A stretch of 34,570 bases of DNA, from positions 1 to 34,570 of the forward strand of contig CAZKWY010000007.1 of NCBI GenBank assembly GCA_964556655.1, read 5' to 3'. Each line of letters begins with the position of its first letter. Position 1 is the first letter of the stretch. The DNA comes from an uncultured Candidatus Saccharibacteria bacterium. Its GTDB lineage: Bacteria; Patescibacteriota; Minisyncoccia; Portnoybacterales; UBA2143. Below are positions 1-34,560 of the stretch, piece after piece. The translations under genes and the position numbers were made by a program. The notes beneath the pieces were generated by a model. The model did no database searches. It was given only the letters and a program-made list of their open reading frames with translations, and had not been told where the DNA came from.

Positions 1-234
1 AGTTTACTGTTTAACAGTTGAATTAATTGCTCAGTCATTCGTCTTGTCTCCAAACGTAGCGTCTAAGTACACGAAGCGTATACTCTGTGCCTAGTTGCTG
101 GTTACACATGACTACAAAATACTCTACATTAGAATACTTGTGGTCATGGTAATGTGAGGGCTTCCCGTATCTCATCTTAGGTCAAGTAAGATACTAGAAC
201 ATAGACTATATAAGTTTAACTGTGTTCAGAAGCA

Positions 235-843
235 TTATACTTCAAACAGGGTTTTCTGAGTGTTACCCCTAGCTGAAGCCAATATAACTTTACCTAGTTC
301 AGGTTCAACACAGTTCCGGAGAATAGTGCGTTTATCTATACCACTATACTTATCAAGATTAACCCCTTTGCGTTCTTGAAGCTCCTTTATACCATCATGA
401 ACAGTAGGTTCAACACGTATCTTTCTTATCTTAAAGTTAGCCCAGAAATAATGTCGCCCTAATGTCTGCGGTTCTATAAGTGGGTCATAGTAACTTATCA
501 CGTTTTCTACACAATATTTCCCATCAAAATGATGCTGTAAGAATAATATCTCCTCATATAACTTCATGTCCGGGTAAACAGGGTTCTTATTTTTCTGTCC
601 CCAATAACGTGCTCTGCTATGTGTGGGGCATGGTGGGCTGCTCCATATAAAATCATACTCCTGGAAGTGATCTAACAGATATTGGTGAGCATCGGCCACT
701 ATCACAGTGTCATCGAGGAAGAAGTCACTGTATATTTCCGCTATCTTTGGTTCCCACTCCACGGCGGTAACATCTACATCCTCCCATAGTTTACGGTTAC
801 CCCCACCACCAGCATACAGGTTTAACACTTTCCACCTAGACAT
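235..843 (-). CDS. short C5-cytosine DNA methyltransferase-like protein (paralog A)
   Basis: 202 aa ORF. Motif I-like LYAGGGG, an E-x-x-K region, motif IV-like SSPPCPTHS (PC motif), ENV motif (CVENV), and a C-terminal ARGNTQ motif. Shorter than canonical C5-MTases, so probably little or no target recognition domain. Clear paralog of 33807..34433. Confidence 0.55.
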   Translation of the reverse strand: MSRWKVLNLYAGGGGNRKLWEDVDVTAVEWEPKIAEIYSDFFLDDTVIVADAHQYLLDHFQEYDFIWSSPPCPTHSRARYWGQKNKNPVYPDMKLYEEILFLQHHFDGKYCVENVISYYDPLIEPQTLGRHYFWANFKIRKIRVEPTVHDGIKELQERKGVNLDKYSGIDKRTILRNCVEPELGKVILASARGNTQKTLFEV

Positions 844-899
844 ATTAAGATAAAAACACGTAAAACAATATATAAGTTTATCTAAAAAAGTATTAAGAA

Positions 900-2879: not shown

Positions 2880-3230
2880 TATTTTATTTTATTTTACCCC
2901 CATAGCCTAAACCTATTCCATTATTTTATTCTTACCCCATTATCCTATTCCTTCTTAACCTATTGGCCCATTAACCTACTCCTTCTTACCACCCCATCCT
3001 CTTAACCTACCACACCCACCCCCGTACCGAAAAAAATACACCGAAAAACTTAAAAAGGCAATATAACGGGGTTCTGTCTACGCGGGTTTTTTGGGGAGTG
3101 GGTTGTATGTTGTGAGTGTTGTGTGTTGTTGTGAGTGTTATGTGTTGTTGTGGGTTATGGGTTGTTGTTTGGGTTGTTTGTCCATCCCCATTCTTGTCTT
3201 ATTTGGTTTAGTATTCGCTGGGTTAGTTTA
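2880..3230. repeat. strand-asymmetric low-complexity tracts (CA-rich 2880-3030, then GT-rich 3060-3230)
   Basis: Repeated cctaacc/ccttcttacc-type units, followed by gtgttgttgtgagtgtt-type units. The GT-rich part overlaps the 3' end of the - strand gene 3155..3706. Confidence 0.4.
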
Positions 3231-3811: not shown

Positions 3812-3822
3812 TTATGCTATGT
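3812..3822 (+). promoter_or_regulatory. candidate archaeal TATA box upstream of the terminase gene
   Basis: tatataat lies about 20-28 nt upstream of the ATG at 3842, consistent with a leaderless or short-leader archaeal promoter. Confidence 0.3.
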
Positions 3823-3841
3823 ATATAATTGTGATATAGTT

Positions 3842-5428
3842 ATGGATATGGTTGTGGATATGGTTGATATGCGGGACACTGGTTTCACTTATAAGGGTGA
3901 GCCAGTTGATCCATGTGGTTCTTTATATGATTTCAGTAGATACTGTTTTAATCAACCTCATGAGAATAAACCGTTTCACGTGGATTGGTATGAGACTATC
4001 GCGGATCACAACATTAAGAGTGGTTTAATTATTGCTCCACGTAACAGTACTAAGAGTACTTGTTGGGGTAGAGTAGCGCCCCTATGGTTACTCGGCTGTA
4101 ACCCAGACTTACGTGTCGTTTTAGTTAGCCGTACCAGTAGCCTCGCTCAGGATAATCTACGTTTCATTCGTTTACAGGTTGAGAGTAATGACAAGGTACG
4201 GGAAGTGTTTCCCTATGAAGAGGTTAACGGACGAGTATTCGGGTTAAAAGCTAGTAGTCCATGGGGTACTGAGAAATTGACTATTATGAATAACCGTAAC
4301 GATGGAGTTCCCTCAGTGTACGCGGTTGGGTTAGAGGGAAGCATTTCAGGTATAAGAGCCGATTTGATAATAGTTGATGACTTAATTGACATTAATAACG
4401 TTATGACTGAGGGGCAACGTGAGAAAGTTAACGATTTCTGGGATAGCGTGATTTTACCTACGCTTAACCCTGATGGACGCATATTCCTTGTAGGGACACG
4501 GTATCACGCTAAGGATTTCTATAACCGTATGCTTGAAGACCCTATGTATAAGGATAACTCATTCATGTTCCCAGCGTTAACAAACGAGAAAGGGGAGACA
4601 TGGTATGATGAAGAAGACACACCGATTAGTTATTGGCCTGAACGGTGGCCTGTTGAGAGACTTATCTCTATGAAGGAACGTATGGGTAGTCTAGCTTTTA
4701 ACAGTCAATATCAATGTGATCCATCTGGGTACGCTGGAACCGTGTTTAACCCCGAGGATTTAATGTTTTATGACCCTGAACGTGACTTATTACCTATATG
4801 GGGTGACCTAGACTTCGTTATGAGTGTTGACCCTAACGTCACTGAGAACCCTGAATCAGATAACACCGCTATTGTGACCGCTGCGGTGGATAGGCGTCGT
4901 AGCCAGATATTCATTCTTGACATATACGCGAAGCCACTGGGTTTCACTAATCAAGTTAAGAAGATAACTGAGTATGGGCGTCGTCGACAGGTGTCGGTTG
5001 GTGATCTTCGGTTTGACTCTGAGATACGTATCAGTAAGATTGGGGTTGAGGCTGTCGCGTATCAGCGGAGTCTTCAGCAGACGGGTTATATGCTTGGTTT
5101 ACCTGTGGTTGAGGTGCAGCAGGGTAATAAGAATAAGGAAGTGCGTATAGTTGGTGTTCAACCGCATTTTGAGAACGGGCGACTGCGTTTACCTAATCCC
5201 GATAAAATTAGTCTCCCATGGTATGATGCCTTCTATAAAGAGTACGTGAGTTTCCCGAAGGGGCGGCGGGATGATATGCTTGACGCGGTTGAGATTCTTG
5301 TCGGTATGGTGAGTGATAGCTTCGCTGTTTCAGGTATACCATGGGGTCCTAGTGATGGGGGTGCGTTGAATATGAGTCGCAGTCGTTCAGGGCGTGGTTT
5401 AGGTTTCTCGGGGGGTTTCAGGGGCTAA
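3842..5428 (+). CDS. terL: terminase large subunit
   Basis: 528 aa. P-loop-like GLIIAPRNSTKST, Walker B-like DLIIVDDLID, C-terminal nuclease-like region. Typical position upstream of the portal gene. Unusual Gly/Ser/Arg-rich C-terminal tail. Confidence 0.9.
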   Translation: MDMVVDMVDMRDTGFTYKGEPVDPCGSLYDFSRYCFNQPHENKPFHVDWYETIADHNIKSGLIIAPRNSTKSTCWGRVAPLWLLGCNPDLRVVLVSRTSSLAQDNLRFIRLQVESNDKVREVFPYEEVNGRVFGLKASSPWGTEKLTIMNNRNDGVPSVYAVGLEGSISGIRADLIIVDDLIDINNVMTEGQREKVNDFWDSVILPTLNPDGRIFLVGTRYHAKDFYNRMLEDPMYKDNSFMFPALTNEKGETWYDEEDTPISYWPERWPVERLISMKERMGSLAFNSQYQCDPSGYAGTVFNPEDLMFYDPERDLLPIWGDLDFVMSVDPNVTENPESDNTAIVTAAVDRRRSQIFILDIYAKPLGFTNQVKKITEYGRRRQVSVGDLRFDSEIRISKIGVEAVAYQRSLQQTGYMLGLPVVEVQQGNKNKEVRIVGVQPHFENGRLRLPNPDKISLPWYDAFYKEYVSFPKGRRDDMLDAVEILVGMVSDSFAVSGIPWGPSDGGALNMSRSRSGRGLGFSGGFRG

Positions 5429-6168: not shown

Positions 6169-7698
6169 ATGAGTGAAGAAGAGGGTAAAGGGGAAACAGG
6201 AGGTATAAGTAGAAGCATTAGAAGCGGTATCCCGGGGCTAGGTGACAGCGGTGGGGTTGCTTCTGATAGCTACACTAGTCGTGAAAGCTTTAAAGCTTTT
6301 AATCAACGTGGAAGATATATTGGAGCATATGAGGGATACGGTGCTAAGATACGTGACACGGATCGTTTATTCTATAGTACACGTGAACCGGTTGGAGTGT
6401 GGTGGGTTAAACACATCGCGTATGATATCTTTGATAACGGTTTCCACGTGGTTAACCCTGATGATGTGGATGATAAAACACTGGATAGAGACGTTCAGAG
6501 ACTATTTCATCAGTTAAAAGCGAAGCAGGCGCTTATACGTAGCACGGTTTTTGAGCGAAGATACGGTACAAGCATACTTGTGCATAGCTACACGGGGTTC
6601 GGTGATAACGTCGATTGGGGGACGCCTTTATTCGAGTTAGAGCCAGACGGCTCGTTCCCAGATAACCTTAACGCGGGGGAGCTTCTTCAGGTAACACCTT
6701 ACCCGTGGACATCAGTTAACGTTGATGAACTTGATCTAGATGAGTCAAGCATACGCTATGGTTTACCTTTATACTATAAGATACATATAGGTTCAGCTTC
6801 AAGCGACACAGTTGTACCGAGCGGTGAACAAGCGGATAACACAGTTAAGGTTCACTGGACTAGAGTCACGTTAGATAATCCACGACTAGATGAACACCCC
6901 TATGAAGGCATACCAGCGATAGACGCTATATTCGATGACTTAGTTGGCGGACGTAACGCACGGTGGGGAGCGTATGAATCCTATTACCGCCACGGAACAG
7001 GTTTCCCCGTGATAAAGACAAGGGGTACTCCTGAGCAGAACCGTGAATGGATAGAGAACGGTGGACTCAACGACTACGTGAATGTACGTGGATACTTCGT
7101 GTGTCACATAGATGAAGAGTTCAGCTTCGAGGGAGCACAAGGAAGGGCGCTTAACCCTAACACCTACTTCGACATGTACTACACGTTCATAGCGGCAGCC
7201 ACGGGGGTAGCGAAGGATAGTATACAAGGAGTGAGCGCGGGGCGAGTAACTGGTAGCGAGGTGAATGAGCGTCAATACTATAAATCTATCTCCTTGCTTC
7301 AGAACCAGAAAGAACCAGTGATTAGGGAACTAGTGGATAGACTCATACAGACGGGGCAAATAGAATACGAGGGCGACTACGTGATTGACTGGGTTGACCC
7401 CTTCGAGGTTAACCCACAAGATAAAGCCGCTATAGAGTTCATGGAGACACGTACAAGAGCGTTGCAGACATGGAAAACGTTTAACGAGTTAAGAGCAGAG
7501 GAGGGCTTAGAACCCATAGAAGGGGGTGACGTGTTAATGAGTCTACCGGGGCAGATGGCGCCGGGGGGCAGTGAGCCTGCTCCTAACCAAGAGGAGCCGG
7601 CGGCAACTAGTTCTGAGCCGGAGGAAGGTAGTCCTAGTGAATCAACGTTACTTGATAAGGTTCTCGGTAAAGCCTTGGATGCCTTGGGTAAGGAGTGA
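6169..7698 (+). CDS. portal protein
   Basis: 509 aa ORF immediately downstream of the terminase region, with an acidic Pro/Glu-rich C-terminus. Called from size and gene order. Confidence 0.6.
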   Translation: MSEEEGKGETGGISRSIRSGIPGLGDSGGVASDSYTSRESFKAFNQRGRYIGAYEGYGAKIRDTDRLFYSTREPVGVWWVKHIAYDIFDNGFHVVNPDDVDDKTLDRDVQRLFHQLKAKQALIRSTVFERRYGTSILVHSYTGFGDNVDWGTPLFELEPDGSFPDNLNAGELLQVTPYPWTSVNVDELDLDESSIRYGLPLYYKIHIGSASSDTVVPSGEQADNTVKVHWTRVTLDNPRLDEHPYEGIPAIDAIFDDLVGGRNARWGAYESYYRHGTGFPVIKTRGTPEQNREWIENGGLNDYVNVRGYFVCHIDEEFSFEGAQGRALNPNTYFDMYYTFIAAATGVAKDSIQGVSAGRVTGSEVNERQYYKSISLLQNQKEPVIRELVDRLIQTGQIEYEGDYVIDWVDPFEVNPQDKAAIEFMETRTRALQTWKTFNELRAEEGLEPIEGGDVLMSLPGQMAPGGSEPAPNQEEPAATSSEPEEGSPSESTLLDKVLGKALDALGKE

Positions 7699-7702
7699 GA
7701 CT

Positions 7703-8593
7703 ATGGGTGATTCATTTTATACCCTTGTTTGCCCGTTATGTGACGGAGAACGTTTTATAACTGATTTATATAACTGTGAAGAGGTTTGCGTAAACTGTGG
7801 ATACGTGTTGAATAACCCATCGGATAAGAGAATACCTGTGCATCTACGAGGATACGAGAAAAACTATGGAGGCGAGGTACGTGAGAGTGTACATGATAAG
7901 GGGCTTAGCACAACGTTTAACGTTGGACGAGACGCCGCGGGGGCTTCACTGGATAAGGAAACCATGAACCTTGTTTACCGTATGAGGAAACATAACCGTC
8001 GTAGTAAGATAAATGACAGCGTTCAACGTAACCTCAGCATAAGCCTCAGCGAGCTTGACCGTATGATAGGGGTGTTAAAGCTACCTGAGTACGTGAAAGA
8101 GGAAGCTGCTCATATCTACCGCACGGCTTTACATATGGATATGATACGTGGGCGTAGTATAGATGACTTTGTAGCGGCAGCGGTTTATATGGCGTGCCGT
8201 AAACTACGGGTAGCACGCACCCTACGAAGCATAGTGGATGCGAGTAAGGGATGCTATGAGGATGTGTCCCGTACTTATCGTTTAATGCTACGTGAACTAG
8301 ATATACGTCTCCCCGTGGATACTCCGGGAAAGTTTGTGGCTGATATAGCTAGTTACCTTGGTTTACCTAGATGGGTTGAAAGGGAGGCTGTTGAGACGTT
8401 ATCTACGGCTCGTAGTCGTCGTTTAACGGTTGGTAAAGACCCTAAAGGGGTTGCTGCTAGTGCTTTGTATTATATTTGTGTAAAGAACGGGGTGGATGTT
8501 GTGCAACGTGATCTTAGTGAGGCTTGTGGAGTGTCTGAGATTACTATAAGGAATCGTTACCGTGACCTAGTTGACGGGTTAGGTGAGGACTAG
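7703..8593 (+). CDS. tfb: transcription factor B (TFB/TFIIB) homolog
   Basis: The ATG at 7703 directly follows the portal stop; the track ORF starts at an upstream GTG at 7571 inside the portal gene. N-terminal Zn ribbon CPLCDGERFITDLYNCEEVCVNCG. Two cyclin-like repeats: LPEYVKEEAAHIYRTAL...RGRSIDDFVAAAVYMACR and LPRWVEREAVETLSTARSRRLTVGKDPKGVAASALYYICV...ITIRNRYRDL. Confidence 0.85.
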   Translation: MGDSFYTLVCPLCDGERFITDLYNCEEVCVNCGYVLNNPSDKRIPVHLRGYEKNYGGEVRESVHDKGLSTTFNVGRDAAGASLDKETMNLVYRMRKHNRRSKINDSVQRNLSISLSELDRMIGVLKLPEYVKEEAAHIYRTALHMDMIRGRSIDDFVAAAVYMACRKLRVARTLRSIVDASKGCYEDVSRTYRLMLRELDIRLPVDTPGKFVADIASYLGLPRWVEREAVETLSTARSRRLTVGKDPKGVAASALYYICVKNGVDVVQRDLSEACGVSEITIRNRYRDLVDGLGED

Positions 8594-23679: not shown

Positions 23680-24810
23680 ATGGTTATACGTTACTATGAG
23701 TTAATGAGCAGTTATTTCAGCCCTAGCTCCGGGTTCACATGGGAAGAGTTTGACTTAACAAGCAGAGGGGTTCCAGCGAATTGTGTAGCGGAGATAGGTA
23801 TAGAGCACCCCAAAGCAGAAGGTGGAAGCGCTCTTGAGCAACGTGCAGGCGTACGTGAGGTTGGTAGTGGTCTTAGCCGTAGAATAGTTTTAAGCCCCTA
23901 TGCGGGAGCACGCCAACGTGCCACTATGAGAGTTAATGTTGATGGTGACAGTAAAATAGAGATATATGGATCGTATCTCACAATACCATCTAATCCTCAT
24001 CCTTATTTTCAAGTACTAGGATACTACACCGGGGGAACATATACAGAGACAAACATAGAACTAGACTTCACGGATAACACATGGCACACAAACGACTTAT
24101 ATACAAGCGATAGCGTACCGAAAGGCTCAGTTGTAGACGTAATAATAGGACCCGGTCGTGAAGGGGGGGTTCAAGAGGTTGGTTTACGTGAGTTCGGTGA
24201 ATCTGGTCGTACTTATCTTATGAAGGACACGTGGTATGATTATGGTGAGAACACGGTTAGCATATATGAGACTACTGACGCTAGTGACGGGAAGATTCAA
24301 ACCTATTGTGAAGACGCTACTTATATGGCGGAGAGTAATATTGTTGCTGGTTACTGGGATAGTAGCATAGAGTACACGGTTATGGATCAGATACTAGTAC
24401 CATCTAGTGCAGCTTCATGGGTTGATCATGATTTGGATACCTATAGTGTTCCAACTAATGTACCGGGGGTGTTTATTCAGTTTAACCGTGAGGATGATAC
24501 GGTTAACACTATTGGTGTGCGTGAGGATGGTAGCAGTTTAACTCGGTACACTAACGTGGATTATGGGGAATACGTTAACCCGGATTACTACGCTACGTGT
24601 GGCACTATGACTTGTCAAGTTACTGGCGCTGATAGTCGTGTTGAGTTATACACTACTGACACTACTTATGGGTATCTGATACTTGACGGTTATCTTAAGA
24701 CTAAGGGGAAACTAGCTAAACTTGATGGAATAAGTCTAGCGGATATAGATAAAATTGATGGTATAGATTTAACGGATATAATCGCTGTTAATAATATTCC
24801 CACAAGCTAG
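23680..24810 (+). CDS. fibre/receptor-binding-like protein with internal repeats
   Basis: 376 aa. Three copies of a G-V-R-E-x-G-S-x-L/R-type module: EQRAGVREVGSGLSRRIVLSPY, GGVQEVGLREFGESGRTYLMKD and NTIGVREDGSSLTRYTNVD. C-terminal DGISLADIDKIDGIDLTDI tandem. Confidence 0.4.
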   Translation: MVIRYYELMSSYFSPSSGFTWEEFDLTSRGVPANCVAEIGIEHPKAEGGSALEQRAGVREVGSGLSRRIVLSPYAGARQRATMRVNVDGDSKIEIYGSYLTIPSNPHPYFQVLGYYTGGTYTETNIELDFTDNTWHTNDLYTSDSVPKGSVVDVIIGPGREGGVQEVGLREFGESGRTYLMKDTWYDYGENTVSIYETTDASDGKIQTYCEDATYMAESNIVAGYWDSSIEYTVMDQILVPSSAASWVDHDLDTYSVPTNVPGVFIQFNREDDTVNTIGVREDGSSLTRYTNVDYGEYVNPDYYATCGTMTCQVTGADSRVELYTTDTTYGYLILDGYLKTKGKLAKLDGISLADIDKIDGIDLTDIIAVNNIPTS

Positions 24811-29214: not shown

Positions 29215-29997
29215 TTGAACACTTATACACTTTACCAAGGAGACTGCCTAGAAGTCTTACCTACACTTGAATCAGAGTCAGTAGACTTGGTTGTAACAAG
29301 CCCCCCGTATAATCTAGGTATGGATTATGAAAAAAAACTACTTGAAGAAAACTATTTCACCTTCATAGAACAAACCCTGAAAGAAATATATCGTGTGCTT
29401 AAACCAAGTGGACGTATATGTTGGAACATAATACACCAATGTCGTTGGGGGAAAGATGGTGACATATATCCAATGGCGAGGAAACACGCTAACAAACTAG
29501 AAGATGCGGGGTTCAGGTTTTTCGATCACCTAATATGGAACCAAGGTTACTCGGATTCAGCAACCGCGTGGGGGAGCTGGTTATCGCCTTCAGCACCATT
29601 TATACGACATAAAACAGAAGCTATTCTAGTTTTCTATAAAGACGAGTGGAAGTTAAGAGATAAAGGAGAAACGGATTTAACTAAGAAGGAGTTTATGAGT
29701 TGGACTAATAATGAGGTGTGGGAAATACAACCAGAGTCAGCTAAGAGGATAGGACACCCAGCTCCTTACCCAGAGGAATTTGTATATCGTTGCGTCAAGC
29801 TATTCAGTTACGTTGATTCAGTTATCCTCGATCCGTTTCTTGGTTCAGGTACTACTATGAAGGTATGCCAAGATAATAACCGTAGCTGTATAGGGATAGA
29901 AAAGTTTGAGGAATACATCCCCTTAATTAAGAAGAGGTGTTGGGGTAGACAATTCCTAGATAGACAAGTAGAATACAACTTTCACTCTTGTAAGTAA
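29215..29997 (+). CDS. beta-class N4-cytosine / N6-adenine DNA methyltransferase
   Basis: 260 aa. Motif IV DLVVTSPPY near the N-terminus and motif I ILDPFLGSGTT near the C-terminus (beta permutation). TTG start after AAGGTGA; no ATG upstream of the catalytic motif. Confidence 0.85.
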   Translation: MNTYTLYQGDCLEVLPTLESESVDLVVTSPPYNLGMDYEKKLLEENYFTFIEQTLKEIYRVLKPSGRICWNIIHQCRWGKDGDIYPMARKHANKLEDAGFRFFDHLIWNQGYSDSATAWGSWLSPSAPFIRHKTEAILVFYKDEWKLRDKGETDLTKKEFMSWTNNEVWEIQPESAKRIGHPAPYPEEFVYRCVKLFSYVDSVILDPFLGSGTTMKVCQDNNRSCIGIEKFEEYIPLIKKRCWGRQFLDRQVEYNFHSCK

Positions 29998-33319: not shown

Positions 33320-33664
33320 TTGAATGAAATGAAAGATGAATCAGAGATATACCGTGAAGCCATGGAGTTATGGGGATGGGAACTACAAGCAGGAGTCCTA
33401 GCCGAGGAATGCTGTGAACTAGCCAAAGCCACATTAAAACTCATACGATATAAGAACATATACCCTGCCCACCCGAACCGTGAAGAGTTAGAGAACTTTG
33501 TAGAGGAAATGGCTGACGTGCAGATAATGTTAAACCAGTTCCTCAACGAGTATTTAGATTATGGAGATAGGTTGCTGTATCATGAATTGAAGAAGCGGAA
33601 ACTTGAACGAGTAGCACAGTGGATAGAACGAGATAAAATTAGTGTTGTAGATGAAAAGAGATGA
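33320..33664 (+). CDS. MazG-like nucleotide pyrophosphohydrolase
   Basis: 114 aa. LAEECCELAKA (EExxEL-like) and EEMADVQIML (EExxD) motifs typical of the all-alpha MazG family. Confidence 0.6.
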   Translation: MNEMKDESEIYREAMELWGWELQAGVLAEECCELAKATLKLIRYKNIYPAHPNREELENFVEEMADVQIMLNQFLNEYLDYGDRLLYHELKKRKLERVAQWIERDKISVVDEKR

Positions 33665-33810
33665 TAGAGGATTATTATTGTTATGGTTGTGGATCAATCA
33701 ACCTTCGCTTTGATAGGGGGTTCCGAGTAGTCTGTCTTGATTGCGGAAGAGATTGGTATGAAATAAGAAAATCTATTCAAGATAAAATCTTATTTGAGGA
33801 AGAACAATGA
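33661..33810 (+). CDS. Zn-ribbon 49-aa protein
   Basis: Not in the track. CYGCG...CLDCG. ATGA overlaps on both sides. Confidence 0.3.
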   Translation: MIEDYYCYGCGSINLRFDRGFRVVCLDCGRDWYEIRKSIQDKILFEEEQ

Positions 33811-34433
33811 CTTGGAAAGTGCTTAACCTGTATTCGGGCATCGGGGGTAACCGTAAACTATGGACAGATGTGGATGTAACAGCAGTAGAGTTAGTTCCTG
33901 AGATAGCACAAGTTTACCAAGACTTCTTTCCAGAAGACGAAATTATAATAACAGATGCACATCAATTCCTATTAGAGAATTTCCAAGATTATGATTTTAT
34001 ATGGAGTTCGCCTCCATGCCCGACTCACTCACAAATAAGGTATAGATTAGGGGTGTTAAATGATTCAGCTGAACCTGTTTATCCAGATATGACTTTGTAT
34101 CAAGAGATAATATTTCTCCAATATCACGCTAAAGGAAAATGGGTTGTGGAAAACACTGAGCCATATTATGAACCACTAATAAAGCCACAAGTCTGTGGAA
34201 GGCATAGAGTGTGGACGAATTTCTTAGTTACTGAGTTTAAGGAAAGTGGTGCTGGAACTACAAGATGGGGGAGTTTACAGGACATGCAGAAGTTAAAGGG
34301 TTTTAACTTGGATAAATATAGTGGAGTAGATAAAAGAACAATGTTACGAAACTGTGTTAACCCAGAAACAGGTAAACATATATTGGATTGTGCTAGGGGT
34401 AATACTCAGAAAACCCTGTTTGAAGTATATTAG
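33807..34433 (+). CDS. short C5-cytosine DNA methyltransferase-like protein (paralog B)
   Basis: 208 aa. LYSGIGG, SSPPCPTHS, VVENT and ARGNTQ motifs. Clearly homologous to 235..843 over the full length. Confidence 0.55.
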   Translation: MTWKVLNLYSGIGGNRKLWTDVDVTAVELVPEIAQVYQDFFPEDEIIITDAHQFLLENFQDYDFIWSSPPCPTHSQIRYRLGVLNDSAEPVYPDMTLYQEIIFLQYHAKGKWVVENTEPYYEPLIKPQVCGRHRVWTNFLVTEFKESGAGTTRWGSLQDMQKLKGFNLDKYSGVDKRTMLRNCVNPETGKHILDCARGNTQKTLFEVY

Positions 34434-34446
34434 TTGTGATTAAACG

Positions 34447-34560
34447 ATGAGAGGAAAATGGATTATACTCGGAGCAATAGTATCCCTAATCACGGGAGAC
34501 GGTTTTTTCTTTATACTAGGCTTCCTATTCAGCGTCATGTTTGACGACGAGGAAACATAA
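34447..34560 (+). CDS. putative 37-aa TM peptide
   Basis: Not in the track. MRGKWIILGAIVSLITGDGFFFILGFLFSVMFDDEET. Small hydrophobic ORF after the MTase-like gene. Confidence 0.2.
   Translation: MRGKWIILGAIVSLITGDGFFFILGFLFSVMFDDEET

Follow-up and report, generated by a model that had tools for sequence, protein, structure and literature searches.

How have two long-diverged genes of one viral genome come to share stretches of identical nucleotides, and what might their products do? The genes lie near opposite ends of a 34,570-nt stretch of DNA (contig CAZKWY010000007.1 of assembly GCA_964556655.1, deposited as an uncultured Candidatus Saccharibacteria bacterium), which as a whole is called the window below and belongs to an archaeal tailed virus. 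Both are intact, are inverted relative to each other, and encode minimal proteins resembling C5-cytosine methyltransferases (C5-MTases): the left copy (235..843 including the stop codon, minus strand) has 202 aa and the right copy (33807..34433 including the stop codon, plus strand) 208 aa, just as a first-pass annotation, made from the letters of the window, had described them. We put at roughly 60% the probability that these genes are members of two subclades of one protein family, acting as stand-alone orphan methylases with probably two targets, whose 3' ends have been made nearly identical by gene conversion.

The two proteins are 62% identical over their full length (BLASTP, E 1e-94), in agreement with the moderate identity first noted, and the genes are 66-68% identical overall at the DNA level. 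For the left copy an ATG start at 843 is preferred over the GTG chosen by the gene caller (P0047), because K4 and V5 fit the family N-terminus. Both proteins carry LY(A/S)G.GGNRKLW and SSPPCPTHS, whereas the ENV motif initially ascribed to both is found in the left copy only (VENV), the right copy having VENT in its place. A repeat scan of the window displays the gene pair as two inverted-repeat arms (I1 and I2), and 54 kb of the contig hold no other repeat, no third copy, and no longer flanking repeats. The first-pass annotation had also proposed that the two genes would be adjacent and convergent if the genome were circular. The window corresponds to bases 13527-48096 of a 59,160-nt Logan contig, SRR7048225_56066, with identity over both overlaps with the flanks, and this contig carries both copies (the right one as the exact protein P0001, the left one as P0047); the window as a complete or circular genome is ruled out by this identical internal placement. 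The copies are separated by 32,963 nt, or by ~24,961 nt along the other path even if the contig were circular, and therefore the adjacency idea fails. They are inverted and belong to different transcription units.

What kind of protein do the two genes encode? Their fold is the class I S-adenosylmethionine (SAM)-dependent Rossmann fold with a motif I of the form F/Y-x-G-x-G-G, and the confident AlphaFold2 (AF2) models of the right and left copies, with a predicted local distance difference test score (pLDDT) of 89.8 and 85.9 and a predicted template modelling score of 0.87 and 0.86, respectively, agree in the order of their secondary-structure elements. Structurally, the closest match is DNMT3B, with a sequence identity of 16% to the DNMT3A/DNMT3B catalytic domain. 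The Pro-Cys motif IV, SSPPCPTHS, is present in both copies (616..642, minus strand, with Cys72 as the predicted catalytic nucleophile; 34005..34031, plus strand, with Cys71), and P69, P70, and C71 are invariant in alignments of 49 and of 44 sequences. Motif VI was mapped manually to VENV/VENT at the end of a beta strand (E111-117), where E115 and N116 are invariant. The motif VIII region, which profile searches do not align, reads P-Q-x-x-(G)-R-H-x-x-W-x-N with H133, W136, and N138 invariant and R132 merely frequent, and a C-terminal, motif X-like RNCV helix has R181 and C183 invariant. Altogether, the residues invariant in 49 sequences include G11, G13, G14, N15, R16, P69-P70-C71, H74, R78, E115, N116, H133, W136, N138, R181, and C183.

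A target recognition domain (TRD) and small domain between motifs VIII and IX are absent, and the first reading that there is no room for a normal TRD is borne out: about 24 residues separate the motif VIII-like from the IX/X-like segments, in the form of a variable stub of 21 aa in the left copy (370..432, minus strand) and 24 aa in the right copy (34224..34295, plus strand). Each protein would thus comprise only the catalytic "large domain", with motif I for SAM binding, the motif IV nucleophile, the Glu-Asn of motif VI, an atypical motif VIII (R-H-x-x-W-x-N), and the X-like helix, while the stub would occupy the place of the TRD. Profile searches give a similar picture, as Pfam PF00145 passes its gathering score over residues 4-88 only, that is, motifs I-IV (in the left copy 25.9 bits over residues 5-80), PHROGs "DNA methyltransferase" families match mainly the N-terminal ~80 residues, with phrog_757 extending to residue 120, and both a profile comparison with the PDB and an hhalign comparison with an approximate M.HhaI sequence align motifs I-IV only. 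Since the TRD, a defining feature, is missing and motif VIII is atypical, we place the family with the C5-MTases at the level of the fold, and not among ordinary Dcm-type enzymes.

The family is large, with more than 8,000 clusters at 90% identity, almost all of 195-230 aa, and 334 clusters at 50% identity at E <= 1e-30. The family profile matches 1,413 of 1.84 billion representatives at E <= 0.001, and because far more matches would be expected if canonical C5-MTases fitted this profile, we read the family, on sequence grounds, as a clade separate from them. It occurs on 80 IMG/VR contigs and in genomes labelled as belonging to many bacterial and archaeal phyla; carriers include phages of Flavobacterium, Vibrio, and Gordonia as well as a Nitrosopumilaceae spindle-shaped virus. 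In the Flavobacterium genomes (L105, L106, L111, L113, L127, L128, L142, L146-L149, L156, and L162) the gene has one conserved context of membrane proteins and a 673-aa protein, which may be a conjugative or integrative element, and in most of them the C-terminal tail is basic (...SKTRKNGKGVR) in place of Q-x-x-L-F. Some family members are longer (359-521 aa), namely P0226, P0205, P0217, and the BFVD entries H9YQD4 and H9YTL8; the last two are structural matches, 44-45% identical.

In P0226, P0205, and P0217 a ParB_N domain lies upstream of the minimal methylase core, with an additional helix-turn-helix (HTH) in P0226. Such ParB_N(+HTH) fusions represent three independent cases, and the commonest neighbour of the family is a ParB-N6/N4 DNA methylase (20 loci), which together point to DNA as the substrate. 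Most likely, the products of both genes are stand-alone orphan methylases that modify the viral DNA as a protection from host restriction, each copy probably acting at its own short or degenerate target.

The best-surviving alternative, itself unlikely, is that these are not DNA methylases at all, and that they act on RNA, as a Dnmt2-like tRNA 5-methylcytosine enzyme does, on free nucleotides (dCMP/dCTP), which would explain the absence of a TRD, or in the transfer of a non-methyl group. The match to Dnmt2 covers only motifs I-IV, which are common to all C5-MTases, and the fusions and neighbours just described point to DNA. Moreover, the stub between motifs VIII and IX is hypervariable across the family yet conserved inside each subclade, which fits a range of target sequences better than a single small molecule. 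Two genes upstream of the right copy there is a MazG-like nucleoside triphosphate pyrophosphohydrolase gene (33320-33664, plus strand; phrog_2245, E 4e-20; missed by Pfam). Among 170 loci examined such a gene is no recurrent neighbour of the family, which counts against free nucleotides as the substrate, and a link to nucleotide metabolism through it was ruled out on this ground.

Methylation of DNA might also be achieved jointly, if the two proteins formed a hetero-oligomer like DNMT3A-DNMT3L or the two-subunit M.AquI, with each giving part of the DNA-binding surface. The best structural match, DNMT3B, is an enzyme with a very small TRD and relies on dimerisation, the C-terminal tail shared by the two copies could be an interface, and sets of two or three diverged members stand in tandem at L044, L018, and L134. 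Against this, ~97% of loci have one copy within +/-10 kb and only 4/164 have more (three in tandem at L134, two each at L044 and L018, and one plus a fragment at L122), both copies in the window retain every catalytic residue, 33 kb lie between the genes, which also differ in transcription unit and orientation, and no conserved partner gene was found; we therefore hold a hetero-oligomer to be quite improbable. Among the members of the tandem arrays (L134 655-3534; L044 9998-11380; L018 5328-6606) is a distinct subtype, "YACLGGNRY...RNLVDYEAGKTI", found together with the canonical one. A TRD supplied in trans by a neighbouring gene was likewise considered and ruled out, as zinc-ribbon genes are rare (13/129 upstream open reading frames (ORFs) with >=2 CxxC) and no neighbour family is universal to the loci.

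Two stand-alone methylases thus remain the preferred reading, and the next question is how the two copies are related. The right copy, of the "ENTEPYY / GRHRxW / TRWG" subclade, shares 71-73% identity with P0002-P0008. For the left copy, of the "ENVISYY / GRHYFW / KTVHDGI" subclade, the figure is 74-79% with P0121, P0086, P0119, and P0122, and the right copy stands only at about the 55th place in its match list. Because each has closer relatives elsewhere than its partner (62%), the copies either are long-standing paralogs or were acquired separately from two subclades, and they are not recent duplicates. Apart from the gene itself, no synteny was found between this virus and the contigs of these closest relatives. 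One of them, P0007, is itself a mosaic, with a right-clade body and an N-terminal 76 aa that are 87% identical to the left copy. In addition, L171 (P0007, right-clade, 73%) and L170 (P0086, left-clade, 77%) come from one metagenome, ENA sample ERZ27256808; together with sample ERZ27256828, it contains homologues of both copies at 73-79% identity. The pair may also be present in a related virus, and members of different subclades may often recombine.

Divergence between the two copies is distributed unevenly along the protein. Identity is 72% over motifs I-IV, 41% in the loop after motif IV, 62% over motifs V-VIII, 8% in the stub between motifs VIII and IX, 76% over motifs IX-X, and 92% in the C-terminal tail. 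The post-motif-IV loop (565..615, minus strand; 34032..34091, plus strand) is the predicted mobile catalytic loop, modelled with low pLDDT in the left copy, while the stub is conserved within each subclade, with a consensus of E.G.G.TRWG in the right and KTVHDGI.E.QERK in the left one. In canonical C5-MTases the catalytic loop and the region from motif VIII to motif IX determine specificity. Because the copies differ most in exactly these two predicted DNA-facing segments, analogy with the canonical enzymes suggests that they target different DNA sequences.

The tail runs opposite to this trend, and it is here that one of two islands of nucleotide identity lies. Island 1 (GGGGGTAACCGTAAACTATGG) encodes GGNRKLW at the end of motif I and matches exactly between 784..804 (minus strand) and 33843..33863 (plus strand), as previously reported. 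Island 2 (ACTCAGAAAACCCTGTTTGAAGTATA) is exact as well and covers the codons TQKTLFEV together with the first two bases of the stop codon in the left copy (236..261, minus strand) or the TA of a Tyr codon in the right copy (34404..34429, plus strand); the right-hand coordinates originally given for it, 34405-34430, were one base too high. Neither island is a family-wide or virus-wide nucleotide motif, an option ruled out by their absence from IMG/VR (2.9 million contigs searched with the 26-mer), and the window holds no further near-matches.

Could such runs arise without any exchange, from conserved peptides and shared codon preferences within one genome? Synonymous sites outside the islands are near saturation (68/123 identical codons against 56 expected), and two null models were applied. 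When the amino-acid alignment was kept and codon pairs were shuffled among positions with the same residue, the probability of a longest run of >=24 nt was 0.008, that of a second run of >=21 nt was 0.002, and that of both was 0.0004. In the second null model, made up of 1,533 inter-genome gene pairs of the family at 57-69% amino-acid identity, 12% of pairs contain a run of >=21 nt and 5% one of >=24 nt, while 0.85% have a second run of >=21 nt and 0.5% have both together. Since 12% of such comparably diverged pairs from unrelated genomes have a run of >=21 nt, one island by itself is nothing unusual here. This holds for island 1, which relatives on other contigs match at 17-19/21 nt; the 5' island is ordinary nucleotide conservation around motif I in this family. 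The 3' tract alone rises clearly above this background: over the last 16 codons, identity between the copies is 92%, whereas the control pairs have a median of 52% and do not exceed 85%, so that 0/1,533 reach 92%.

The 3' tract also stands out within the genes themselves. Synonymous divergence (dS) falls from 2.58 over the remainder of the genes to 0.14 over the last 17 codons, and in sliding windows it is 0.46 in the first 17 codons, saturated throughout the interior, and then 0.25 and 0.14 in the last two windows, so that a tract of sharply reduced synonymous divergence is bounded by saturated divergence. The tract comprises the last 16 codons of the left copy (ILASARGNTQKTLFEV; 238..285, minus strand) and codons 192-207 of the right copy (ILDCARGNTQKTLFEV; 34380..34427, plus strand), identical at 44/48 nt, and uses the rare codons CTA (0.18) and ACC (0.13). 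It is more alike than in comparably diverged homologues from different genomes, which is not true of the 5' island. Thus, gene conversion, suggested in the first pass for both islands, is upheld for the 3' island and not for the 5' one. That both islands are chance runs with no exchange is hard to square with the codon-pair permutation, the rare codons, the collapse of dS, and the excess over all control pairs, and in spite of the family background around island 1 we regard this explanation as unlikely.

An origin by exchange is further indicated by the relationships of the different parts of the right copy, whose body is nearest to P0002-P0008 in an identity comparison while its tail is nearest to the left copy. 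The right-copy tail TQKTLFEV matches the left copy at 24/24 nt, and P0003, P0007, and P0006 only poorly. Among the family sequences inspected, the KTLFEV ending occurs only in the two copies of this genome, which again speaks against chance runs. GNTQKTL is native to the left subclade, and right-clade relatives end otherwise (...NATQIKLSQF, ...GNTQVSLSSF, ...FKEKQLGL). Short gene conversion is the best explanation of the 3' island, and since GNTQKTL is native to the left subclade and dS collapses locally, conversion from a left-type copy into the right copy is its simplest account, with a left-clade copy probably being the donor. The mechanism that we infer would be a short, non-reciprocal recombination event over ~38-50 nt, ending at or just past the stop codon, for which a virus-encoded RadA would be available.

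The idea that the 26-mer is instead a cis-acting site under selection at the DNA or RNA level (a promoter or terminator, a recombinase or invertase site, or the substrate of a 33-kb inversion) can draw on the inverted arms, the only long exact repeat in the window, and on the tract ending at the stop codon with an A/T-rich GTATA, yet it is very unlikely. The next start codon follows at 14 nt on the right (a hand-read ORF) but at 60 nt on the left, where a better TATA-like element, separate from the tract, is present at 207-218, and neither site showed a hairpin of the terminator type. Furthermore, the IMG/VR contigs lack the 26-mer, a sister-sample contig (L002) shows the parental junction only, and no recombinase gene was noted nearby.

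Several observations weigh against the preferred reading of two orphan methylases with 3' ends made alike by conversion. With regard to conversion, the tract is short, strong selection on synonymous sites is formally possible, and no terminal homogenisation was seen at the other multi-copy loci L044, L134, and L018. With regard to the enzymes, sequence similarity to canonical C5-MTases is confined to motifs I-IV, the canonical Arg-x-Arg of motif VIII is replaced by R/x-His, and the cut-off of NCBIfam TIGR00675 (dcm) is not reached (20.0 and 25.5 bits against 100.65). No experimental characterisation or activity of any family member was found in the literature. Furthermore, the case for different specificities draws solely on where the copies differ.

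The 3' tract encodes a flexible tail at the C-terminus, beyond the last core helix, which AF2 models with a pLDDT of 53-77. A Q-x-(T/S)-L-(F/L) motif recurs at a conserved position in the tails of the family and often makes up their final residues. Qxx[LIMV] is found in 242/357 tails compared with 80 in shuffles, Qxx[LIMV][FLIM] in 132 compared with 18, and, among 73 non-redundant tails, Qxx[LIM][FLMWY] in 17 compared with 3.0 expected (maximum 8 in 500 shuffles), 7 of them at the very C-terminus. The motif is present in a minority of family members, about 23-37%, and members labelled as bacterial end in ...QKSLF, ...QGVLF, ...QTTLF, or ...QKTLF. These endings bring to mind the consensus motifs for sliding clamps (QL(S/D)LF for the beta clamp, and, more loosely, Qxx[IL]xxFF, the PCNA-interacting peptide (PIP) box, for PCNA) and the delivery of DNMT1 by PCNA (PMC9690074). 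The likeness to such clamp-tethered proteins is one of motif resemblance only, and the QKTLFEV(Y) of the two window copies is not a canonical PIP box. It is a tentative and rather improbable proposal, made from sequence patterns, that the TRD-less core, reading little or no sequence, would not find DNA unaided, and that the Q-x-x-L-F tail might bind the sliding clamp (PCNA in archaea, the beta clamp in bacteria) and tether the core to replicating viral DNA for broad methylation of the nascent strands, in which case the 3' island would be a host-adapted clamp peptide copied by gene conversion. If true, the enzyme would be a C5 counterpart of the near-non-specific M.EcoGII, delivered as DNMT1 is by PCNA.

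In what genome do the two genes reside? The window encodes a large terminase, a portal, and an HK97-like capsid protein, as well as a TFIIB/TFB homologue (7571-8593, plus strand) with two cyclin-like repeats (Pfam E 6e-35) and a weak zinc ribbon, and its flanks encode MCM, RadA/Rad51, and an STIV_B116-like protein, the MCM helicase and RadA/Rad51 recombinase genes lying just outside the window (L001 12559-14601 and 17501-18541). Because of this combination, the element is an archaeal tailed virus, with a genome of roughly 59 kb. The TFIIB/TFB gene sits between the portal gene and the next structural gene, and a basal transcription factor within a morphogenesis module is unusual; TFIIB genes have been reported from thaumarchaeal conjugative elements (PMC6563490). 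The terminase is <=28% identical to terminases of isolated phages, and a megablast search of 25 kb against 50,697 phage records gave 0 matches, so the virus has no close reference genome. At least two N6/N4 DNA methylases are also encoded (29215-29997, plus strand, and L001 16361-17185), which together with the two C5-like cores makes four methylase genes in ~59 kb.

The right copy is part of a long rightward operon that continues into MCM and RadA, and its start overlaps the stop codon of an upstream 49-aa zinc-ribbon ORF (ATGA), with which it is translationally coupled. A 37-aa hydrophobic ORF (MRGKWIILGAIVSLITGDGFFFILGFLFSVMFDDEET; 34447-34560, plus strand), not called by the metagenome gene caller, starts 14 nt past the stop codon of the right copy. 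The left copy lies within a leftward block of small genes and is bracketed by the only two copies in the window of a 12-mer resembling a B recognition element (BRE)/TATA box, TAAACTTATATA. One exact copy (869..880, minus strand) ends 25 nt upstream of the left-copy ATG, and the other (207..218, minus strand) stands just downstream of the gene, 31 nt upstream of the ORF at 35..175 (minus strand). From its sequence, the element at 869-880 is possibly an archaeal BRE/TATA promoter, from which the left copy would be transcribed as a separate unit with a leaderless mRNA; as a control for chance, 15/100 shuffles gave >=2 matches at <=1 mismatch. Scans for sigma-70 promoters and intrinsic terminators, which use bacterial models unsuited to an archaeal virus, returned nothing relevant.

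Short tandem repeats occur elsewhere in the window, comprising a GT-rich 19-mer in 3-4 units and an array of 12/23-mers straddling the terminase start at 3842 (3099-3175 and 3818-3866), as well as four units of an 8-mer close to the left copy, in the divergent region, and two units of a 33-mer inside a tail-region gene (1491-1523 and 24713-24780). The region of 1.1-3.8 kb between the divergent modules has a weak coding signal and could hold an origin or a regulatory region.

How does this family compare with known methylases? Classical C5-MTases have a TRD of about 80-150 aa and a motif X G-N-S/A-V helix that completes the SAM pocket. In contrast to M.HhaI, M.HaeIII, and Dcm (PF00145), which have 320-450 aa and a motif VIII of the form Q-x-R-x-R, the family has ~200 aa, lacks a TRD or small domain, and has R-H-x-x-W-x-N at motif VIII. 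DNMT3 enzymes keep a TRD loop of ~50 residues and gain DNA contact through dimer and tetramer interfaces. The enzymes of the Bacillus phages SPR, phi3T, and rho11s are multispecific C5-MTases and resemble the present case in viral C5 methylation over several targets; they string several TRDs in one long polypeptide, whereas here there are several separate TRD-less genes. Arrayed TRDs are mentioned in PMC12707154, which also reviews the broad protection from restriction proposed for orphan "semi-specific" methylases of phages and plasmids, M.EcoGII being one example (PMC5778455). Like M.EcoGII and the ParB-fused N6/N4 orphan methylases, the family is found on mobile elements without a restriction partner, often adjoining methylases or fused to ParB_N, but those enzymes are amino-methyltransferases (N6-A or N4-C), whereas the mini family appears to be of the C5 type. 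Neither a TRD-less C5-MTase family nor a clamp-binding phage methylase was found in full-text literature searches.

The two genes and their relatives have implications beyond this locus. Gene conversion is an ordinary process, and here it marks the C-terminal tail as a unit that was exchanged intact. An archaeal virus with four methylases, two of them diverged C5 cores, is in keeping with pressure exerted by several restriction systems of the host. The family, which is abundant in viruses of Bacteria and Archaea, would represent the smallest C5-cytosine methyltransferase architecture known, a catalytic core without a recognition domain, and a compact enzyme of this kind could serve epigenetic labelling. 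Cytosines might be chosen by this family through the stub, through oligomerisation, or through clamp tethering, and an understanding of this choice would broaden what is known of how C5-MTases recognise DNA.

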